A DNA stretch of 20,000 nucleotides from an uncultured virus (IMG/VR IMGVR_UViG_3300035187_001477). Lineage: Duplodnaviria; Heunggongvirae; Uroviricota; Caudoviricetes; Crassvirales. The position numbers and the translations under genes are program-made. The stretch lies in the IMG/VR virus record IMGVR_UViG_3300035187_001477; one strand, 5' to 3'. Below, one piece after another: positions 1 through 20,000 of the stretch. The notes under the pieces are model-generated. The model was given only the letters and a program-made list of their open reading frames with translations, was not told the DNA's origin and did no database searches. Within the stretch, counting starts at the first letter, position 1, and every line of letters starts with the position of its first letter.

Positions 1-2804
1 TCGATGGTAGCACCCTCAAGGTCTACAGCGTTTGATATTTCTACAATCCTTTCACCTTTATTATTCTCATACCCACCAATAAACTCAAGGACGTTGGTCT
101 TGATACCAAGTAAACTGCCAATATCTGCAAGTGTTTGCAGGTATCCCTTATACGCAGGAGACTCTCTTAATGCTGCAGCTTCTGAGGTAGACCCAACTTG
201 TGTGTTAAAGAATGGAGCTACATTTACCCGTGTCTTTGAAGACACTTTTTGAAGAGCATCTAATTCGTTAAGAGCTTCATCCACTGCTATGGTTTGATCT
301 CCAATAGTGATGGTCTCTTGATCATCTTCTACAGCAGCGAGCGCTTTGATTAGCGCATCTTTCCTTTCTTGTTGTTCGGGGCTGAGGACTTTTTCACCCT
401 CTTGGGTAATGACTTCAAGTCCTGTTTTGGGTTCTCCTTGCGCCAACGCTTCGCTATCTCCGGGTGTTGGCTGAACAGATACTTGACCTGCTGCTTGCTT
501 TTGAATGGCATCTTGTGATATTTTAGTTAGTTGTTCATTAATAGCTTTTACTCTTTCTCTTTGTGGTACGGTAAGCGCTTCGTCTTTCCCATCAATCTGA
601 CGCTCCAAGTCACGCTTCTCTTTAAGTAAGTTCATAGCCTCCTTCTTTCCCTGCAAATCAAGGTTGGGAGGAAGTGAATTGAATAAACCAACAGCATTGC
701 GGTAATCGTTGAGTGTCTCTTTGGCTTCAGCCATAGTAAGCTCACCTGTATTCACCTTGTTCTGAAGGCTTATGATAAATGCTTTTTCAATCTTTGTATC
801 GTTGGCTGCTGCTTCAAACAACTCAAACTGTGTGTCGCTCATACCCAAAAATCCCTGCTTACGATAAGCAGCAGAAAATCCCGGCAGCGTTCCAATAATA
901 GCACCACCTACTGCTTCCTGTGCACCGGCATACGCAGCGTTTCTAACGTAATCCATAACACTCTCAGGGGTCTCAAACATCTGCTTACCCTTGACAGCAT
1001 TGTATACATCTTTAAGTCCTGACTCAGCAAGTTCTTGTGCAGCACCGGTCTCTGCCTCAGCAAGAGCACCTCCTACAACAACAAGAGTTCCACGAGCAAG
1101 ACCACTCTTTACTTCATTCTTTATTAGTTCATTAAAAGTTCTTGCAGATGTTGTACCACCTGCTTTACCTAATGCTTTTACAACAAGACCATTAAGTAAG
1201 CCTTTGTTTGCTAACACGTTTCTAAAACCTATAGCCTCGAGCGTACCAACAGCCGCACCAATTGGAAGAGTAACAGCAAGCTTTTCATTTTCAGATATGT
1301 TATCGAACTCAGGGTTGTTTGCCATCTCTTCGTTTAGATTGTCACTTACCTGAGCATACATCTGAGCCGTGCGTTGCGCCCATCCAACAGGACCTGAACC
1401 ACCCATCATTGCAGGGACAGACTTAGCAAGACCCAATACTGCGCCTCCCCAAAATCCCTCATTCTTTAAGTCTTCCCACTGAGTAGTAGTGCTTGAGTCT
1501 CCATATACAATTCTGTTTCCTTTTCTTATTGGTTCAAGCCATCCACCTTCACGCTTACCTGTTTTGGGGTTTACTTCTCCATACAGTACTGCTTTCTTCG
1601 CTTCATCCTCAACCTCGTCATCTATATCATCCATTACTCCGCTTGGTAATTTATTTTTCCAAGCTTCAAATTCTTCTTGACTTTTTAATTCACCAAGAGA
1701 AAATCTTGGTGGCTGATACCCCATCCTCTTGGCTTTCTCAATAACAGCAGCCCGATACTCATCACGCCCCATCAACATTTCTTTTGGAAGCAACTCTGCT
1801 TCCAAATTTGTAATAAGCGAAAAGGCTGTAGATGATATTGATGCTGCCCCATCTAAGAAGGCATTTGCTATACCACCATACCAAGTCCCCTGTTGAGCTT
1901 TTTGCTCTGTGTATTTGCCGACAGCTTGATTAAGCACTCCCATCCGATTCTTAATATCGGTTTCGGTAGCCATAGCACCGGTTACTTCTTTATTAAAATT
2001 TAGTTTGTTTTCATTAAGTTTTTGAAAACGCTCTTGAAAGGCAGGATTATTTCGCTGTGCTGATGGTGTAGAATTGATTGCGTTTTCTTCTGCCTCTATT
2101 TCTTTCTTTCTCTTTAATAACTCTTGCGTTCTTAATCTGAAAGCATACTCTTCCTCTTGCATCTTCTTGGTGACATCTTCAACCTCTTTCTCTGTAGTGT
2201 ATTTTTTATTGGCAGTAGTATACTCTTTTTCAAGAGTCTGTAAGTTATTTATGGTAGCAGAGTTCTCTCTTAAAAACTTTCTAAGAGCCTCAGACTCTTC
2301 CTTGTCTCCTGCTGTAGTCCAATTATCTAATGAGATTCTTGCTTTCTTTCCATTGGGAGCAGTAACATCTACAAAATCTCTTCCGGGTACAGCTTCATCA
2401 AACTTGAAACCCATAGGTCCAAATTGATAGCGCAGTTGAGGGACGACATATTCCTCTCCCTTGTCAATTAAGTCAGGGCTGATAGCAGCGAGTTGCTCTT
2501 CGACAAAATTAGGAAGCTTCGTAGGTGATACCAATGAACCACCTGCCGAAGGTAATGCCGTAGTGACTTTTTTTTTAGAAGGGTCCTCTGCTGTTGCAGC
2601 TACTTGAGGAGTAGCCGGCATAGCAGATAAGTACTGCTTAGTAAAATCAGTCTTAGGTTTTGTGTATAAACCATCCCTATTAAGAACACCGTACACTTTC
2701 TCTTGATATGCAGCATCCTTGAACTTTGTCTTGAAAGCATCATAGTCCTGAGTAAAGTATCCTTTCTCTACAAGTAAGTCGTATAGTTTTTGTAACTCGT
2801 CCAT
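1..2804 (-). CDS. Giant virion/ejection protein (gp16-like position, possibly polyvalent), >934 aa, 3' end beyond the window
   Basis: Hand translation from ATG at 2804 (MDELQKLYDLLVEKGYFTQDYDAFKTKF...) stays open to the window edge (...EISNAVDLEGATI). It is absent from the ORF track, consistent with having no stop inside the window. It has an A-rich start context (AAAAAAAATCTAATG), coiled-coil-like stretches and Gly/Ala-rich hydrophobic segments, and is the third of three genes after the GNAT-like gene. Confidence 0.85.
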   Translation of the reverse strand, partial: MDELQKLYDLLVEKGYFTQDYDAFKTKFKDAAYQEKVYGVLNRDGLYTKPKTDFTKQYLSAMPATPQVAATAEDPSKKKVTTALPSAGGSLVSPTKLPNFVEEQLAAISPDLIDKGEEYVVPQLRYQFGPMGFKFDEAVPGRDFVDVTAPNGKKARISLDNWTTAGDKEESEALRKFLRENSATINNLQTLEKEYTTANKKYTTEKEVEDVTKKMQEEEYAFRLRTQELLKRKKEIEAEENAINSTPSAQRNNPAFQERFQKLNENKLNFNKEVTGAMATETDIKNRMGVLNQAVGKYTEQKAQQGTWYGGIANAFLDGAASISSTAFSLITNLEAELLPKEMLMGRDEYRAAVIEKAKRMGYQPPRFSLGELKSQEEFEAWKNKLPSGVMDDIDDEVEDEAKKAVLYGEVNPKTGKREGGWLEPIRKGNRIVYGDSSTTTQWEDLKNEGFWGGAVLGLAKSVPAMMGGSGPVGWAQRTAQMYAQVSDNLNEEMANNPEFDNISENEKLAVTLPIGAAVGTLEAIGFRNVLANKGLLNGLVVKALGKAGGTTSARTFNELIKNEVKSGLARGTLVVVGGALAEAETGAAQELAESGLKDVYNAVKGKQMFETPESVMDYVRNAAYAGAQEAVGGAIIGTLPGFSAAYRKQGFLGMSDTQFELFEAAANDTKIEKAFIISLQNKVNTGELTMAEAKETLNDYRNAVGLFNSLPPNLDLQGKKEAMNLLKEKRDLERQIDGKDEALTVPQRERVKAINEQLTKISQDAIQKQAAGQVSVQPTPGDSEALAQGEPKTGLEVITQEGEKVLSPEQQERKDALIKALAAVEDDQETITIGDQTIAVDEALNELDALQKVSSKTRVNVAPFFNTQVGSTSEAAALRESPAYKGYLQTLADIGSLLGIKTNVLEFIGGYENNKGERIVEISNAVDLEGATI
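350..511 (-). CDS. Nested small basic protein, 53 aa (MPFKSKQQVKYLFSQHPEIAKRWRKENPKQDLKSLPKRVKKSSAPNNKKGKMR)
   Basis: ATG at 511-509 and TAA at 352-350, in the +1 frame of the giant ORF. The upstream context is A-rich (ACTAAAATATCACAAG-ATG, A at -3). From memory it resembles small phage proteins beginning MPFKSxxQ. Confidence 0.6.
   Translation of the reverse strand: MPFKSKQQVKYLFSQHPEIAKRWRKENPKQDLKSLPKRVKKSSAPNNKKGKMR
2568..2576 (-). other. A9 slippery site (A_AAA_AAA), candidate -1 frameshift or transcriptional slippage site
   Basis: Minus strand reads TCT AAA AAA AAA GTC. The -1 frame continues SHYGITFGRWFIGITYEAS to a TAA at 2511-2509. Confidence 0.5.
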
Positions 2805-2822
2805 TAGATTTTTTTTGTTCTG

Positions 2823-4652
2823 TTAATCCAATTCACCTTTTAAGATTCCCTTACCCTCAAGACCTTTTAAGAATATAACTTGATCTTCTGCAGATGCGCC
2901 CGGAACATTTGAAAGCATAAATGCTCTTATTTTTTCGGCTGCCTTTGCAGGATCACTTAAGTATATTGCAGAAGATGATTTGCCATCAGAATTTGTTAAT
3001 ACAATTGCATCAGACCCAATAACAGCTTCTCTAACGCTAAACCCAAGCTCATTAAACTTCGCTTCGTTTGCAGAAATAAAATCAGTTTCATCTGTTGGTT
3101 GATTAGCACCTGAGAATACCGTTTTAAGGTGGTCTGCATACATCTTGTTAGGGTCACCTGTTTTCTTAGGACCTGTAGAAGTAGCCTTAGCTTCCCCTGC
3201 TTGGAATGTTGTAGTCTTAGTTTGAAGTGCACCCTTTACAACTTCGTTAACATCAACTGTTCCTCCAAGAAGTAGAGGAGCTGCTGAACGAACAAAGTCT
3301 TGTTGAGTCATCATCTCTCCCGTGTTAGCGTTCTTGAATGGAATAGCTTTAGTCGAACCATCATTAAAGGTAATGCTAACTCCATCATTAGTTCTACTTA
3401 CATCTTTTACATTTGGCATACCATAGAAGTGGTTGATAGCAGCTTGTTGTTCTGCAGGAGTACCACTATATAGTTTAGCCAACATATTACCTGATGTCTG
3501 AGCGCTTTTCTTTTGATCACCTCTTTCATAAACGTATTGAGGAGGATAGTAAGTAGGCTCTTTTCGTGGCTGACTGAACGGTTGCACTTCAGTTTTCTGC
3601 TCAAGCATACTACGAAACTTATTTTTAGTATACTCTTCAGCAGTCTTTAACTGATCCTTGCCATTCTGTGTGCTCTCAAAGTCAGGTTGAAATACACCAT
3701 CCTTATGAGACCACAATATATAATGAGAGCTTGAATTTGCTACGTTAGGGTCCGTTGTAACCTGATAAGCTTTGCCTGATTTAGGGTCAATGCCTCCGGT
3801 CCAATCAAACAATATGGAAGATACGTGCGCAGGGTTAGATAGTTGCGCCTGTACAATAAGTTTTTCGCTTTCAATATATTTGTCGACAGCTTGCTGTCCT
3901 TCTTGACTAAGACCAACACGTTTAGTTGGGTCTGTAACCTTGGTAAGGAAGCCTGTCTGAGTTGCACTACCTGTAGAAGTAACAACCTCCTTTACCACAT
4001 CGCCTAATAATTTTGCCTCTTGACTTAGGTTTTCATTCAGAGCGTACTTGTCAATCTTTTCTTTGATACGGTTACGCAGTTGGTTTACCGTCATATAATT
4101 GTCGGGACCTTCAGCAAGAGTCTTAACACCATTTTTATCTACCATCTTACCAATGCTGATAGCACCGGTAGTTGGATTAATCAAAGCTTTGGTTTGACCA
4201 AGGTTTGCAAATCCTTCAACCATTGCCATAAACTGAGTCTCAGCTTCTGAGCTTTCACCCTTCTGCCTACGCTCTGTCTTTACAGAAAACTCATCTTGAT
4301 ATTCTTTCGCAAGGTCAAACATTCTTTTAGTTCCATCCTTGCTATTCTGACGAATGAGCGCATAGTCTTTAGGTTTCATTTGACCCGACTTAAGAAGTCT
4401 GTCTGTAAGAAGTCTATACTGCTGCATATCACCGGCATAGTCTGTAATGTACTTATTTACATCATCAGACAATCCTTGTGGTGCGTTCTCAAGTTCTTCA
4501 CCAAACTGACGAGACGCATCATCAAGAGCCTTCTTTTTTGCTTCACGAAGTGATGCCTCTTGCTTTAGAGTATTGGTTAATTGACTACCAACCTCCGACC
4601 AATCTATCTGATTCTTGGCTTCCCGTTCAGCGTATTTGTAATATGTTGCCAT
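2823..4652 (-). CDS. Putative internal virion/ejection protein (gp15-like position), 609 aa
   Basis: Long ORF tightly coupled to the upstream gene (TAA TAA ATG). Helical, charged N-terminus. Synteny matches podovirus ejection-protein clusters. Confidence 0.6.
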   Translation of the reverse strand: MATYYKYAEREAKNQIDWSEVGSQLTNTLKQEASLREAKKKALDDASRQFGEELENAPQGLSDDVNKYITDYAGDMQQYRLLTDRLLKSGQMKPKDYALIRQNSKDGTKRMFDLAKEYQDEFSVKTERRQKGESSEAETQFMAMVEGFANLGQTKALINPTTGAISIGKMVDKNGVKTLAEGPDNYMTVNQLRNRIKEKIDKYALNENLSQEAKLLGDVVKEVVTSTGSATQTGFLTKVTDPTKRVGLSQEGQQAVDKYIESEKLIVQAQLSNPAHVSSILFDWTGGIDPKSGKAYQVTTDPNVANSSSHYILWSHKDGVFQPDFESTQNGKDQLKTAEEYTKNKFRSMLEQKTEVQPFSQPRKEPTYYPPQYVYERGDQKKSAQTSGNMLAKLYSGTPAEQQAAINHFYGMPNVKDVSRTNDGVSITFNDGSTKAIPFKNANTGEMMTQQDFVRSAAPLLLGGTVDVNEVVKGALQTKTTTFQAGEAKATSTGPKKTGDPNKMYADHLKTVFSGANQPTDETDFISANEAKFNELGFSVREAVIGSDAIVLTNSDGKSSSAIYLSDPAKAAEKIRAFMLSNVPGASAEDQVIFLKGLEGKGILKGELD

Positions 4653-5865: not shown

Positions 5866-6672
5866 TTAAGGATAACTTTTCATCACTTCTGACTCTACGG
5901 CAAAGAGTTCTACCTGACTAACACTATTGTTTTCAAGGTTGAAAACGCAGTAGTGTCCGAGGACACCGTGCGATTCTGCCACAGCGTTTTTGATAAACAT
6001 TATGTACGGGTTCTGTATAGCCGGGATGGTAGCTCCGGGTATGGTCGTATCCACCGTAATCCTGTTAAGGTTGGATGGATAGTTCTGCTGAATATTGGTC
6101 ACCCTCCCGAACAGCAAAGGCGTATTGTAAGTTGGGGGCAGGCTATAGTATAGCATATCCCCGATGCTTATGATACTACCTATTGATATAGGGCTTGCTC
6201 CGATCGCAAAATTGACCTGAACGGCTGACCCTGTACCGGTAATGGTAGTGCTCCTACCTATACCATTGGTAAGCCTAAGAGCGTACTCAGAAGGCTGTGC
6301 CGGTGTAGTACCTGCGTTACGGACAAAGGCAAAGAAAGAGGCTTCCTTCTTTTCAAAGTAGCTGCCTTGAATAAAGCCATCGTCCATTAAGTCGGTCACC
6401 ATTGTTACGGACCAAGGAGCATCACCTTCTAAGTTGATGGTTTTGAATAGCTTATTCTCAAGCGGAGACTCATTGAATACGCTTTGTATACGTGATGGGT
6501 ACTGCACTCCGTAAAAGTTATTACGGGTGTTGTTTACGTTGTGCCTATACAGGTTTCCACCCTTAAACGTATAGAAGTAGTTATTCATCCCGATCATCCA
6601 ATCAGGCAAAAAGGAATAGAAGGATGCCCATCCTTCTACCCCTTCACTATATGTTAGTGTATATGCTGCCAT
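5866..6672 (-). CDS. Tail protein resembling the C-terminal part of the stabilization/muzzle protein, 268 aa
   Basis: Begins TLTYSEGVEGWASFYSFLPDWMIGMNNYFYTFKGGNLYRHN, contains FNESPLENKLFKTINLEG and FEKKEASFFAF, and ends ELFAVESEVMKSYP. These motifs are recalled from the C-termini of crAss-like stabilization proteins. Confidence 0.65.
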   Translation of the reverse strand: MAAYTLTYSEGVEGWASFYSFLPDWMIGMNNYFYTFKGGNLYRHNVNNTRNNFYGVQYPSRIQSVFNESPLENKLFKTINLEGDAPWSVTMVTDLMDDGFIQGSYFEKKEASFFAFVRNAGTTPAQPSEYALRLTNGIGRSTTITGTGSAVQVNFAIGASPISIGSIISIGDMLYYSLPPTYNTPLLFGRVTNIQQNYPSNLNRITVDTTIPGATIPAIQNPYIMFIKNAVAESHGVLGHYCVFNLENNSVSQVELFAVESEVMKSYP

Positions 6673-16588: not shown

Positions 16589-17692
16589 TTAGATTTTTTT
16601 AATGCTGCGGATTTTGAGACTCCTGCCGGAATCCGGTGCGACCGCTTTCACCTGCACTCCCCCCTTATTTACAACTTCAGGTGCTCTACGCTCTGACATA
16701 TTTATATTTTTAGTCTTGCGCATTACATCATCTGTCGCATCAGCTTGTCCTTGTTCGTAAAAGAACTTGGCAAACCTATCGGGGTTCATTGCAATTGACA
16801 AAGCCCTATGGTATCCTGCTGCATCCTTAATCAAGCCCTGATCATCCAAAAACTTATTAATAAAGTTTGTTGGTGTTGATTGAACCTTTTTTAATTCTGA
16901 CGCAGAACCGGGAGAAAACAAAATCTTCTTGTCGTCAATGTTGAACTCAAAACCTTTGAACTCTTTACTAAAGACTTCGTCAGACTTTTGGTCAAACCAC
17001 TTACGCTTCCGGTTGTTTTCTTCATTCAGGGTTTTTGCCTGCTGTGTATATTGACGGTATGCCTCATACTCCTCATTCTCTTCGGGAGACAAACCATTTG
17101 CTCTTGACTCAAGAGGCAGTTTGTACTTCTCCTTCTGTTCGTTGAAGTAATTCTTGGCTTCCGCAATAGCCTTTTTACGTGCGATCTTTATCTTCTTAAT
17201 TTTAGACTCATCATCAATGTCTTCATCGTACGAGTAGTCCTCCATTAACACATCAATGTCTTCTTTGTCAAGACCCTTCTGTGTAGAAGCAAGATATTCA
17301 CGAAGAACTTGATCAGGCTCCATTTCATCGTAGTCCTTGTTGACTTTAATAAAGTCATCAAACCCACGGCCTGTCTCCTTCTTAAATTTCATATAAGCAG
17401 CTACGTCTTCAGGGAGAGGATCAGACTCTTGTCGTTCTGATACCAACTCATCAAAAGAGTTTATCTGCTTATTATAGCGTTTTCCAATATATGAAAGAAC
17501 TTGTTCTTCTGTTAGTTCAGGCTCATCTTCTTTGGTTTGTTCTGTAGAAGTTTCAAGGTTTGACGTGTCGATTTTTATATCGTTCGTCTGTTCACCGTTC
17601 ATTTCCTTCTCATGCTTTTCAAGAAGTTCTTTTTCAACTTCCTGTATGCTTTTACCTTCTGATGAGTCAAGAGCTCTTACTTTGATTTCCAT
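16589..17692 (-). CDS. Putative capsid scaffolding/assembly protein, 367 aa
   Basis: Highly acidic, charged, helical protein lying between the portal and major capsid genes. Confidence 0.6.
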   Translation of the reverse strand: MEIKVRALDSSEGKSIQEVEKELLEKHEKEMNGEQTNDIKIDTSNLETSTEQTKEDEPELTEEQVLSYIGKRYNKQINSFDELVSERQESDPLPEDVAAYMKFKKETGRGFDDFIKVNKDYDEMEPDQVLREYLASTQKGLDKEDIDVLMEDYSYDEDIDDESKIKKIKIARKKAIAEAKNYFNEQKEKYKLPLESRANGLSPEENEEYEAYRQYTQQAKTLNEENNRKRKWFDQKSDEVFSKEFKGFEFNIDDKKILFSPGSASELKKVQSTPTNFINKFLDDQGLIKDAAGYHRALSIAMNPDRFAKFFYEQGQADATDDVMRKTKNINMSERRAPEVVNKGGVQVKAVAPDSGRSLKIRSIKKI

Positions 17693-17740: not shown

Positions 17741-20000
17741 CTATCGAGGTTCAAATTCTGCTAAATCAAACCCGTCAAGCGTGTCCTCGTTAGACTCGAA
17801 GTTCATAGGAGGAAGGTTGTTTTTTCTTTGGTTAATCAGCTTGGATTGCTCCGTATTTTGCTGACTAATCCTTCTTGCCTTCTCTTTCTCCTTCATATCC
17901 TCCCTGCTCATTATAGCGGTCTCCTTAAGACCACCTAACTGCATTTGGTATTGGAACTCCTCGTTCATGAGCATTCGCTTCATCTCAGCCTCAGCTCTTA
18001 GCTTCTCAATATCGAAAGCTACCTCGGCTTGCTTAAGCTGCATCTTGGCCTGAGACTCAAGCTGAATCTTTTGCATAGCCGTTTGTGCCGCCATCTGCTG
18101 AGATTGAAGTTGTTGCTGAGCCATCATGGCCTGCTTCTGCATCTCCATCTTCTCCTGTCGGTCTTGTTTCTTTACACGTTTAACCTTAAGTAACTGATTA
18201 GCAAGCTTTATATTCTTGATTTCCCTGATGTCGATGGCATCCTCAAGGTTGATGTCTCCCTTAGACAGGGCCATTTGAATGTTGGCCTCAAGCTGAGCTT
18301 TCTGCTCTTCATCCGGAGATACCTCGATAAATATACCAAAGTCATATATGTACAAATCCTTAATCTCATTGAGTAAGGATACATTGTACTTGCCTATCTT
18401 ATTAGCGAAATCATCTTTAAAGTCTGCGTATTCCAAAATATCTGCAACACGGTAGGTAAGGGCCTCAGCAAGCGACCTATAAATAAATAAGCCTCCTTCG
18501 AGAATGTGGCGTGTAGCCGTATTAGAGTTAAGTGCAGCGAGCTTTTGGACCCCTACCAATGCGTTTGGATCAGGCGTTGAGCCATCTCTTACTTCATTCA
18601 GACCGGTTACCGACCTGATCATATCAAGGTAGTGATTGTAGTTTGCTATCAGCATCTGTGTTTTAGAAGCCCCCGAATTAGAGGTAAGCTGCTGAATAGG
18701 TATTCTTGCATTGTTGAAATCTCCCTCTTGAGTATAACTACGTCCGATGACGCTACCCGTTTGGAAGTAAAGACGCAACGCATCTTCAGGATTGTATGCC
18801 TGACCTGTACCCAAGTCTACTTCATTGAGACCATCGGCATCAATGAATACACCATCAGGAACAGTACGAGCAATAACCTGCTGAAGCTTTAAGTGAGTAA
18901 GTTGAATTAAGTCAGCGAATGGAACCATTCTACGTACAAGAGATTCAATAACCCCTTTGTACATTCTTGGTGCAACCGCTATATAATTTGGTAACGCATG
19001 TTGAGATGTTGACTTTGGTCTTACCATGTTCTCTGACATCTTCCATTTAAGCAAGATGTTAGTACCCATAACCATCACACCTTCATACCATACGTCAATA
19101 GTCTTTTCTATTTTTTCAAACTTTCCTTCCTCCATCATTTCATAAGGAGGGTTGAACTGATCATCTTTCTCAATCATTCTTGTTCCACCACCATCAAGAA
19201 TTTTTTTCTTGTAAACAATTTTCTTGGTGCTCTTATAGTTGAAATAAAGAAGTGTTGCTGTATCACGATAGAACAAACTGTTCTCATAAAAACGTGCTAC
19301 GTTGTAGTAGTCATACCAACTCTGAGAGTACATAGATATTTCTTGCAACTGCTCACGTGTAAGTGTTGGATCAATCTTCAACAACTCTGTAATTGGAAGC
19401 GTTTTAATTTCTCCCCAATAAAAACAATCCTGAAAGAATGGATCTTCTGTATAGCTATATACAATATTTGCAGGATCTACATACGAAATTTGAACACCGG
19501 CTCCGGGAAGGAACTCGTGCTTTGCACAACCAATACCAAGTACAGTAATATCGTAGTCAATACGCTTACGTGTATCTTGATAATGATTCTCATCAAATAG
19601 TGTATTGATCGCTTCTTCTTCAGCAATCTCAATTGCAGGCTTATAATTAAGCTGCATATATAGTGATAATTCTTCGTCAGTTTCAGGAAGCTCATCAGGG
19701 TCCATCATAAATGGATTGGCACCCGTTTCTTGTTGAATAGTAGTAAGAACATCTTTCGCAGCCATCTGTCCCTCGATCATATCTTGGTACTTGCTGCGCT
19801 TTGATTGTGACATTGCATCTTGTGCGTATGCTTTCACTTTGAACAAGCGATCTGACATACCATTCACAACAATGTCTACAAACTTTGGTAAAATAGGTAC
19901 AGGCGTCCAATCTAAATTTAGATATGACAAATCTCCGTCTATTGCAAGTTCATTTTTATACTTCTGCACAGACTGTTCACCACGAGCATATAATCTCAGT
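17741..20000 (-). CDS. Portal protein, 5'-truncated by the window edge
   Basis: The frame stays open beyond the GTG given in the track (LRLYARGEQSVQKYKNELAIDGDLSYLNLDWTPVPILPKFVDIVVNG). It has a Gln/Met-rich coiled-coil C-terminus typical of podovirus portal barrels and lies upstream of scaffold and capsid genes. Confidence 0.85.
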   Translation of the reverse strand, partial: LRLYARGEQSVQKYKNELAIDGDLSYLNLDWTPVPILPKFVDIVVNGMSDRLFKVKAYAQDAMSQSKRSKYQDMIEGQMAAKDVLTTIQQETGANPFMMDPDELPETDEELSLYMQLNYKPAIEIAEEEAINTLFDENHYQDTRKRIDYDITVLGIGCAKHEFLPGAGVQISYVDPANIVYSYTEDPFFQDCFYWGEIKTLPITELLKIDPTLTREQLQEISMYSQSWYDYYNVARFYENSLFYRDTATLLYFNYKSTKKIVYKKKILDGGGTRMIEKDDQFNPPYEMMEEGKFEKIEKTIDVWYEGVMVMGTNILLKWKMSENMVRPKSTSQHALPNYIAVAPRMYKGVIESLVRRMVPFADLIQLTHLKLQQVIARTVPDGVFIDADGLNEVDLGTGQAYNPEDALRLYFQTGSVIGRSYTQEGDFNNARIPIQQLTSNSGASKTQMLIANYNHYLDMIRSVTGLNEVRDGSTPDPNALVGVQKLAALNSNTATRHILEGGLFIYRSLAEALTYRVADILEYADFKDDFANKIGKYNVSLLNEIKDLYIYDFGIFIEVSPDEEQKAQLEANIQMALSKGDINLEDAIDIREIKNIKLANQLLKVKRVKKQDRQEKMEMQKQAMMAQQQLQSQQMAAQTAMQKIQLESQAKMQLKQAEVAFDIEKLRAEAEMKRMLMNEEFQYQMQLGGLKETAIMSREDMKEKEKARRISQQNTEQSKLINQRKNNLPPMNFESNEDTLDGFDLAEFEPR

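Follow-up and report, generated by a model that had tools for sequence, protein, structure and literature searches.

Introduction

Overprinted genes that arose de novo are known in phages of the phiX174 type and in many RNA viruses, and they are typically nested out of frame and rich in disorder-promoting residues. A parallel to the locus described here is the Rz/Rz1 spanin pair of phage lambda, in which the larger gene contains the whole of the smaller one in its +1 frame and whose relatives include both embedded and separated layouts of the one pair (PMC6139136). In the window, i.e., the whole 20,000-nt stretch of the uncultured crassviral record IMGVR_UViG_3300035187_001477, a small gene of 53 codons plus stop is located on the minus strand at 350..511 (ATG 511-509, stop 352-350), inside a giant gene of the same strand at 3..2804 and offset by +1. 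Like Rz1, it is contained completely in the +1 frame of its host, occurs in embedded and separated layouts, and is omitted by gene callers.

Several features set the locus apart from the spanins. The host is here a gene of the structural module coding for 2,752 aa, constraint is measurable in the embedded gene alone and not in the host segment, and two different genes act as host of the one embedded gene among related phages. Unlike Rz1, the nested product has no lipoprotein signal and no cysteine, and its gene is not part of a lysis cassette. An Rz1-like o-spanin was rejected as its identity, as the 53 residues contain no lipobox cysteine and no hydrophobic signal segment. With overprinted viral genes the locus shares one DNA stretch read in two frames with one disordered or linker-like partner, but the polarity is reversed, the nested frame being old, widespread and constrained and the frame of the large gene the newcomer.

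Results

The peptide of 53 residues that the original prediction placed at 350..511 is identical letter for letter to the translation, and its claimed +1 frame follows from the coordinates (2804-511 = 2293, i.e., 1 mod 3). The product is very basic with 13 Lys and 4 Arg, which agrees with the Lys/Arg-rich character ascribed to it. It consists of a conserved N-terminal module, residues 1 to ~38, and a variable Lys-rich tail; the AlphaFold2 model (mean pLDDT 69.5) has helices at residues 6-15 and 17-26 and a disordered tail. The host ORF, of which the window holds the first 934 codons, extends past the window start and encodes 2,752 aa in G001, the closest genome that is complete; its relatives in Flavobacterium phages were deposited as 'structural protein'. 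The window represents a phage structural module because it carries the portal gene at 17741..19969 on the minus strand (phrog_6547, E 2e-125). Near the portal gene lies the post-portal gene (16589..17692, minus strand, 367 aa), whose orthologue in a sister phage group is the alternative host of the nested gene. The gene callers' omission, claimed beforehand, is seen in the elemovirus and MW202828 records, which carry the giant CDS alone at the locus. A cultured Flavobacterium phage of the elemovirus group, which grows on Flavobacterium sp. BAL314, has a nested copy of 42 aa. Cultured phages gave no blastn match to window positions 1-3000. The RNA-library runs X17-X20 yielded a few contigs of 151-397 nt, with the X19 contig spanning 377-588; such contigs cannot reveal transcription.

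Residues 388-760 of the giant protein form a conserved N-terminal domain (525..1643, minus strand), which ends 14 nt ahead of the nested ATG; the window-type giant protein is homologous to other giant proteins only as far as the small ORF. Over the nested stretch (350..512, minus strand; giant protein residues 765 to ~818) the host frame translates as ...SQDAIQKQAAGQVSVQPTPGDSEALAQGEPKTGLEV..., as quoted earlier, and is acidic and rich in E/Q/V/A/G/T/P.

A lone 53-codon ORF in an alternative frame is unremarkable, with dozens of ORFs of at least 40 aa present in the window. The nested ORF goes beyond chance because it is conserved. The first set of loci was picked by likeness to the peptide (best 80 of 394), which biases it toward intact copies; the start codon was ATG in 81 and GTG in one of the 82 loci fetched via the peptide, and the small frame was open for 41-84 codons in all of them. 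These loci and the window gave 83 classed sequences, 50 of which were giant-nested, i.e., lay in host frames of 700 codons or more, with the small ORF at +1 to the host every time. Sampling by the host domain, in a set that partly overlaps the first, revealed the nested ORF in 52 of 80 loci, and all 52 copies were nested, at +1 and started by ATG. The conservation of the ATG and of the open +1 frame in related giant genes, proposed as a check, is thus confirmed by both samplings. The nested gene is dispensable in some lineages: the remaining 28 host-sampled loci lacked a nested ORF within 2.5 kb downstream of the domain, and in 15 of these 28 records, among them 4 of the 5 that were at least 90% complete, a copy was not found at E<=0.001. 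Two copies (L155 and L159) are shortened to 29 aa.

Both frames are open across diverged relatives, in 50/50 giant-nested sequences and 52/52 host-sampled nested loci. This bears on the proposal that the giant ORF is in reality two genes with the host frame over the small gene open by chance, which would explain why the giant-protein homology ends at the small ORF. It has next to no probability, since the host frame is open across the overlap in one register in every giant-nested sequence and, as far as the DNA was fetched, extends over 762-3,336 codons without a stop, whereas the equivalent frame of stand-alone copies contains 5.28 stops on average and was free of stops in 0/18. Nested copies are recoded at synonymous sites, and the host frame is thereby open: no host-frame stop occurs inside the ORF in 48/48 giant-nested and 7/7 post-portal-nested distinct copies, and the Phe3 codon is TTC in 55/55 nested copies vs TTT in 12/18 stand-alone ones.

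Selection statistics were based on 44 distinct nested copies. The per-site entropy, 1.6-1.75 bits ahead of the ATG, drops to 0.27 there and climbs back to 1.4-1.7 beyond position +120. By small-frame codon position it amounts to 0.571/0.384/0.967, and to 0.608/0.341/1.300 in the own frame of the portal gene, which served as a control. With 0.748, the small frame had a higher amino-acid identity than the host frame (0.491) and the third, non-coding frame (0.502), and it exceeded the host frame in 99.7% of 946 pairs, although the copies share descent and such pair counts and p-values overstate independence. OLGenie-like estimates gave a dNN/dNS of 0.130 for the small frame (bootstrap CI 0.070-0.218) and a dNN/dSN of 1.165 for the host frame (CI 0.75-1.80). 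The reduced host-synonymous variation expected of a second coding frame was found, the host wobble position being the least variable of the three. Purifying selection acts on the small frame, while the host frame over ~160 nt is only kept stop-free, with no constraint on its sequence. Disorder-promoting residues make up 79% of the host stretch vs 54% of whole host ORFs, which, together with a host dN/dS of ~1, supports the linker-like nature proposed for it; the host stretch is an acidic disordered linker that joins the conserved N-terminal domain to a C-terminal body that can be exchanged. The suggestion of a real dual-coding region is upheld by the selection on the small frame and the stop-free host frame, with translation of the small product predicted from the sequence.

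The small ORF is situated at the junction of shuffled giant-gene modules, with 17 upstream and 17 downstream clusters, and the two commonest upstream and downstream clusters occur in all four combinations. Phage L001 additionally carries a ghost copy of the first 17 nt of the nested ORF 396 nt upstream. Both the exact position of the conserved island at this junction and the ghost copy are what would be expected of a nucleotide element, i.e., a recombination linker, regulatory site or RNA structure, in which the ORF of the nested copies is incidental. That the island is nothing but such an element is extremely unlikely in view of the codon periodicity and the dN/dS of 0.13 in the small frame and the occurrence of the same protein as a free gene or an in-frame N-terminal domain in thousands of clusters; a search of window positions 1-3000 against Rfam also gave no match at E<=1. 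A role as a recombination patch could nevertheless be compatible with coding.

Stand-alone MPFKS-type proteins exist, as the original prediction stated. The nested protein has 35 small homologues, and the family comprises 3,850 clusters (E<=1e-3). The module is nearly always N-terminal, with a start at residue 1-3 in 139 of the best 150 members, and 98 longer proteins carry it fused in frame to cargo such as lysozyme, LigD_N, Mu-like protease/scaffold and proteins of at least 1,000 aa. The family is thus large and unnamed, built on a basic two-helix module of ~38 residues that occurs as a free protein of 40-90 aa or at the start of larger proteins of various kinds; free genes and N-terminal domains account for most members, in contrast to the nested and recoded copy of the window. 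Residues M1, P2, F3, K4, S5, Q8, P17 and A20 are invariant and K25, Q30, L35 and P36 nearly so. The window protein has the N-terminal MPFKS..Q, P17, A20, the W23 region and LP at 35-36 and matches the family profile, to which the G001 copy aligns with E 5e-25.

The window protein and 12 of 36 family members weakly matched phrog_1375 (E 0.023 for the window protein, best E 2e-4 among the members). Neither the window protein nor any of 36 family members matched a Pfam model at E<=1. This led to the rejection of DUF3008 (PF11450), a lead from the ESM Atlas (score 0.85, with DUF3008 on 15% of one cluster); DUF3008 proteins are likewise short and basic and presumably start with a sequence resembling MPxKSKAQ. 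A sequence profile search of the PDB with the small protein gave no hits, and the three rows returned by Foldseek for the AlphaFold2 model against the PDB all had a meaningless E of 9.3. A description of the nested gene was not found in the literature on MPFKS proteins, DUF5661/DUF6321, overlapping or nested phage genes, and Elemovirus.

Ahead of the nested ATG and inside the host gene lies an A-rich and G-poor stretch (512..531, minus strand) that is likely to be a Bacteroidota-type initiation region. Across 44 copies the frequency of A was 0.66-0.86 at positions -14 to -11, 0.59 at -6 and 0.75 at -3 against a background of 0.42. At six key positions of Bacteroidota-type initiation, taken from PMC6847099, the mean A count was 4.41 vs 2.18 at 6,549 other internal ATGs, which substantiates the A-rich Bacteroidota-style start of the original prediction; the window copy has A at 4/6. 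Ribosomes would load on this conserved A-rich region, which lacks a Shine-Dalgarno sequence as is typical of Bacteroidota, and the small protein would be made from its own ATG on the mRNA of the giant gene.

Alternatively, a +1 frameshift on the giant ORF would yield a truncated N-terminal fragment ending in the basic module, with the start codon of the small gene unused. Such a product resembles the 1,075-aa protein P0081, in which the giant N-terminal part is followed in frame by the module as its C-terminus and which fits either frameshifting or an indel, and the A-rich upstream region includes runs such as AAAAAAG in some loci. A-runs, however, would favour -1 slippage, which misses the small frame, and L118 and L120, the closest retrievable relatives of P0081, show the ordinary nested layout. 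All 44 distinct nested copies have the ATG even though the host frame is otherwise free of constraint, and the module is seen at the beginning of most family proteins. Moreover, the small frame is interrupted by a stop upstream of the ATG, at a distance of 0-66 codons in the 82 loci fetched (in L014 it abuts the ATG) and of 0-24 codons in all giant-nested loci but two, and a conserved heptamer for shifting was not seen. A programmed +1 frameshift product was rejected on the upstream stops, the invariant ATG and the missing heptamer, and frameshifting as the source of the small protein is very improbable.

The gene also occurs in other layouts. It abuts the end of the giant gene in G056 and G046, and in 9/9 loci examined a frame of at least 498 codons stops 1-2 nt ahead of the small ATG. 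In 10 loci it is nested in the post-portal gene orthologous to 16589-17692, and free copies adjoin portal, terminase or scaffold genes. Gene 48 of Streptomyces phage FlowerPower (YP_009838084.1) is a family member annotated as a free CDS. Cationic 'disruptin'-like lysis peptides disrupt the outer membrane and are encoded in lysis cassettes; in the family studied here FlowerPower gene 48 is the only copy adjoining a holin, and most free copies lie in head modules. The flanks of the giant protein gave no tblastn hits at 1e-5 in the stand-alone and post-portal-nested loci.

Discussion

Taken as a whole, the data are very probably explained by a functional gene in the +1 frame of the giant gene that is older than the overlap and whose host contributes a stop-free linker. 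The giant gene grew over an existing gene, since the small family is far wider than the overlap and is found unnested in relatives. A nested out-of-frame ORF that is itself rich in disorder-promoting residues would also suit a gene born de novo by overprinting inside the giant gene, the origin implied by the original prediction. In this respect the prediction was mistaken and the direction is the reverse: free copies occur in unrelated gene neighbourhoods and in one actinophage, close relatives carry the small gene unnested after the giant gene, and constraint falls on the small frame, the evolution of the host frame being neutral. The de novo overprinted gene was rejected, as free homologues show that the family is not confined to the overlap clade, and little if any likelihood can be given to this origin. 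The small gene being older, the overlap came about as a neighbour of it was extended or recombined across it, and synonymous recoding cleared the stops from the host frame.

The giant host is regarded as a late or structural phage gene. The nested product may be a late basic protein for virion or head assembly, or a partner of the giant protein, e.g., a docking handle or a DNA-facing internal protein, an assignment that we make tentatively. Phage packaging handles are represented by the T4 capsid targeting sequence and SPP1 gp7/MuF. The family could be compared with them as a short N-terminal module on diverse cargo with free copies beside portal, terminase or scaffold genes, although the analogy is functional only and not one of sequence or fold. 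Complex prediction for the small protein and the portal protein (811 aa, 23-row alignment) returned no answer with a score of 0.00, which says nothing either way on binding. When 140 proteins of at least 160 aa, mostly long in-frame fusions, were searched by BLAST against the giant hosts, there is no Rosetta-stone link because P0081 alone matched.

A more far-reaching and rather doubtful interpretation is that of a portable junction gene, whose conserved 130 nt would serve as a homology patch for the exchange of N- and C-terminal modules and whose product would at the same time be the assembly partner, i.e., the docking or packaging handle, of the giant protein built around it. If true, it would explain the abutting, inside and in-frame-fused placements as well as the host frame as a free linker, and the DNA and the protein of one gene would both organise the same giant protein.

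For dsDNA phages the locus is a clean example of nested genes with strong statistics, and it turns the usual story round, since the small gene is the old and widespread one and the giant gene swallowed it while growing. An entire clade of Bacteroidota phages from freshwater and the sea, cultured Flavobacterium elemoviruses among them, gains a protein that is missing from its annotation. The locus also brings to light a phage protein family with thousands of members that Pfam does not cover. The nested start could serve as a natural system for the study of internal initiation independent of Shine-Dalgarno sequences in Bacteroidota, where a single base change would silence the small gene and leave the host protein unaltered. 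The nested locus also offers a way into how the mosaic giant virion genes are assembled.

Setting and distribution of the nested gene

The small ORF lies on the minus strand with its ATG at 511-509 and its stop codon at 352-350, and all 53 residues are identical to the peptide originally predicted there. Its host, the giant gene, starts at 2804 on the same strand and runs past the window start after 934 codons; the offset of 2293 nt between the two starts places the small ORF in the +1 frame. The window is a phage structural module with every gene on the minus strand. The portal (17741-19969) matches phrog_6547 (E 2e-125), and several proteins, including one of 1,490 aa, are labelled 'virion structural protein' by PHROGs, with the giant gene following them. 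The nearest record, G001 (63,364 bp, rated 100% complete), contains 88% of the sampled 31-letter words of the window and carries a single copy of the small ORF, which begins at codon 765 of a giant gene encoding 2,752 aa. Window positions 1-3000 were found in full in 16 lake-water metagenome runs from 2020-2024, thus the phage is a persistent freshwater type. A contig from a riverine metatranscriptome spans window 377-588 exactly, being an assembled contig and no measure of transcription; the RNA-library runs gave short contigs only.

When viral contigs were scanned with the family alignment, 394 matches were confirmed; the best 80 were fetched and, together with two GenBank loci, form a peptide-based set of 82. 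Every one of these loci has an open small frame, 41-84 codons long, which begins with ATG in 81 cases and with GTG in one. With the window added, the 83 sequences show four layouts: giant-nested, where the host frame spans 700 codons or more and the small ORF is always +1 (50/83), nested 23-55 codons into a gene of 384-431 codons (10/83), accompanied by a short overlapping open frame only (4/83), and free-standing (19/83). Because this set was chosen by the peptide, a host-based sample was added using an alignment of the giant N-terminal domain (residues 388-760), yielding 80 loci at 33-100% identity, some on contigs already in the peptide-based set. The small ORF was present within 2.5 kb downstream of the domain in 52 of these 80 loci, and all 52 copies were nested, ATG-started and +1, which bears out the expectation that the ATG and the open +1 frame are kept in related giant genes. 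Within the same distance the ORF was absent from 28 of the 80; the 18 of these that were inspected had no remnant and an ordinary stop density in that frame, 15 of the 28 records, among them four of the five that were at least 90% complete, had no copy of the small gene anywhere at E<=0.001. The small gene is not universal in giant-gene phages. In L155 and L159, the nested copies end after 29 codons, with the LP motif and Lys tail gone, and may be decaying or shortened forms.

Selection on the embedded frame

The selection analysis used 44 distinct nested copies, aligned in a gap-free register. Per-site entropy is 1.6-1.75 bits upstream, falls to 0.27 in the first 15 nt of the ORF, remains at 0.6-0.8 up to +119 and then climbs back to 1.4-1.7. 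At small-frame codon positions 1, 2 and 3 it is 0.571, 0.384 and 0.967, the control values from 20 portal genes of the same phages in their own frame being 0.608, 0.341 and 1.300. Since position 2 of the small frame has the lowest entropy, the host wobble position is the least variable, which agrees with the anticipated reduction of variation at host-synonymous sites. Averaged over 946 pairs, nucleotide identity is 0.747. The protein-level averages are 0.748 in the small frame, 0.491 in the host frame and 0.502 in the third frame, which is untranslated, and small-frame identity exceeds host-frame identity in 99.7% of pairs; as the pairs are phylogenetically dependent, these statistics are descriptive and not exact tests. 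The OLGenie-style dNN/dNS of the small gene is 0.130 (bootstrap 95% CI 0.070-0.218, with 0/1,000 replicates reaching 1), and the corresponding dNN/dSN of the host is 1.165 (CI 0.75-1.80).

The host frame is free of stops in all distinct nested copies (48/48 giant-nested and 7/7 post-portal-nested), while in free copies the equivalent frame contains 5.28 stops on average, with at least one in each of the 18 distinct copies. The Phe3 codon is TTC in 55/55 nested copies and TTT in 12/18 free copies; TTT followed by AAR creates a TAA stop in the host frame. The host motif DA[IV]QKQ is ATG-CCN-TTC-AAR-AGC-AAR read one base earlier. The host frame had been described as linker-like over this span, and it is indeed rich in E (18.7%), Q (15.1%) and V (12.5%), with 79% disorder-promoting residues vs 54% in whole host ORFs. 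It is acidic (D+E 0.21, K+R 0.07), and the small protein is 29% Lys. In the window, the same DNA (350-512) encodes opposite charges, with K+R of 0.32 in the small protein and D+E of 0.21 in the host linker; this opposition could be a side effect of the code, or it may point to an interaction between both products.

Bacteroidota do not use Shine-Dalgarno sequences; in Flavobacterium johnsoniae, initiation is promoted when adenines occupy positions -14 to -11, -6 and -3 (PMC6847099). Upstream of the nested ATG, the frequency of A is 0.66, 0.84, 0.70 and 0.86 at -14 to -11, 0.59 at -6 and 0.75 at -3, against a background of 0.42; G is nearly missing from this stretch, and the sequence around the key positions is otherwise unconserved. 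The mean A count at the six positions is 4.41 for nested ATGs (n=44), 2.18 for other ATG trinucleotides within the same giant ORFs (n=6,549) and 3.17 for the start codons of ORFs encoding 150 aa or more at these loci (n=142); the window copy has A at four of the six. The A-rich start context proposed for the gene is borne out by these counts, which support, without proving, initiation at the nested ATG.

An unnamed protein family

The anticipated family of stand-alone MPFKS proteins is real and large, and has no name. The window protein and 36 family members had no match in Pfam, and in PHROGs the window protein gave a weak match only to phrog_1375 (E 0.023), which 12 of the 36 members also matched (best E 2e-4). 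In a clustered protein collection, 35 small homologues (40-92 aa) were found at E 5e-14 to 2e-3; three have short leader extensions, and the rest begin with MPFKS. At E<=1e-3, a profile search of a representative library gave 3,850 clusters, of which 564 remained at E<=1e-10; among the best 150, the module begins at residue 1-3 in 139, and 85 are at most 100 aa long. The module also occurs in frame in 98 longer proteins (162-1,535 aa). Most of the 13 such sequences inspected carry it at the N-terminus, followed by DUF5661, DUF6321, Mu-like_Pro, phage lysozyme, LigD_N or long unannotated bodies; the database protein P0039 (1,009 aa) has two internal degenerate copies and none at the N-terminus. 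In 13 loci (L001, L002, L125, L139-L141, L152, L156, L158, L169, L170, L174 and L193), a two-Cys variant (..KACY..NPKWDCKKW..) replaces the second helix region of the nested protein and could form a metal or disulphide site.

A tblastn search against cultured phages returned 95 records, including 68 Flavobacterium elemoviruses and one uncultured podovirus. Among the elemovirus and podovirus matches listed, identity is 53.5% over residues 1-41, and the ORF always lies beneath an annotated giant 'structural protein' CDS and never has its own, as expected of a gene missed by gene callers. In both such records examined, the ORF is intact over 42-43 codons, starts with ATG and is +1 to the giant CDS.

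Origin of the overlap

The title of the original prediction implied that the small gene had arisen by overprinting. This view did not hold, as the gene stands free next to the giant gene in relatives, and the sequence comparisons indicate that the overlap is secondary. In the relatives G056 and G046, whose giant genes share the N-terminal domain with that of the window, the free small gene begins 2 nt past the giant gene's stop. In 9/9 abutting loci with a start found, a count that leaves out L212 and L213, the small ATG follows 1-2 nt after the end of a frame of 498 codons or more. The junction 1-2 nt ahead of the free gene is almost always TAATTATG (L202, L204-L211); in L210, the register of the giant stop, if the stop were lost, reads through the small gene in the host frame of nested copies. 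In G002, G053 and 10 'mid' loci, the small ORF is missing from the giant gene and lies nested in the gene after the portal, close to that gene's 5' end. This host is the orthologue of window 16589-17692 (36% identity, E 3e-49 and 8e-59), with homology starting only past the overlap. More distant phages have a free small gene that adjoins head-module genes, in orders such as terminase-portal-small-scaffold-capsid, terminase-small, or T7-type portal, 99-aa gene and small gene; Streptomyces phage FlowerPower carries it as an annotated CDS of 72 aa adjoining the holin.

Similarity of the window-type giant protein to those of G056, G046 and G002 is confined to residues ~90-820, up to the small ORF. 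Crude single-linkage BLAST clustering of the 50 giant-nested sequences gave 17 clusters for the 400 residues upstream and 17 for the 500 downstream, and all four combinations of the two commonest upstream and downstream clusters are present. Flavobacterium phage elemoC (L001:5605-5637) carries a 10-codon ghost of the ORF start; it agrees with the real copy in its first 17 nt and lies 396 nt upstream of it, within the giant gene. The nested gene thus sits where shuffled modules meet. The portal of G012 (L092) is 100% identical to that of the window over 742 aa, yet the nested small ORF (L012) and giant gene of that record differ from those of the window, pointing to strong mosaicism between near-identical structural modules. 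In P0081, the module is in frame at the C-terminus of a giant N-part; the relatives of this protein, L118 and L120, show the usual nested arrangement.

Known systems and possible function

Our literature searches found no published description of this nested gene. The closest architecture is lambda Rz1 inside Rz, which is likewise in the +1 frame, embedded or separated among relatives, and overlooked by gene callers (PMC6139136). Unlike in Rz1/Rz, the constraint here is wholly on the embedded gene, and the same small gene is embedded in two different host genes. With no Cys and no signal segment, the small protein is ruled out as a spanin.

AlphaFold2 with a 36-row alignment predicted two short helices (residues 6-15 and 17-26) and a disordered Lys-rich tail (mean pLDDT 69.5). 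Sequence and fold searches of the PDB with the small protein were empty, and the ESM Atlas returned viral hypothetical clusters only, plus a weak DUF3008 lead. A lysis-accessory or regulatory role is possible. We tentatively favor a role linked to virion assembly, because the gene occupies a late or structural-module position and is tightly linked to the giant gene, abutting or nested, because its free copies adjoin head-module genes, and because the module is fused N-terminally to lysozyme, protease/scaffold and very long proteins; the small protein might then, for example, provide a docking handle or be a basic internal protein that faces the DNA.
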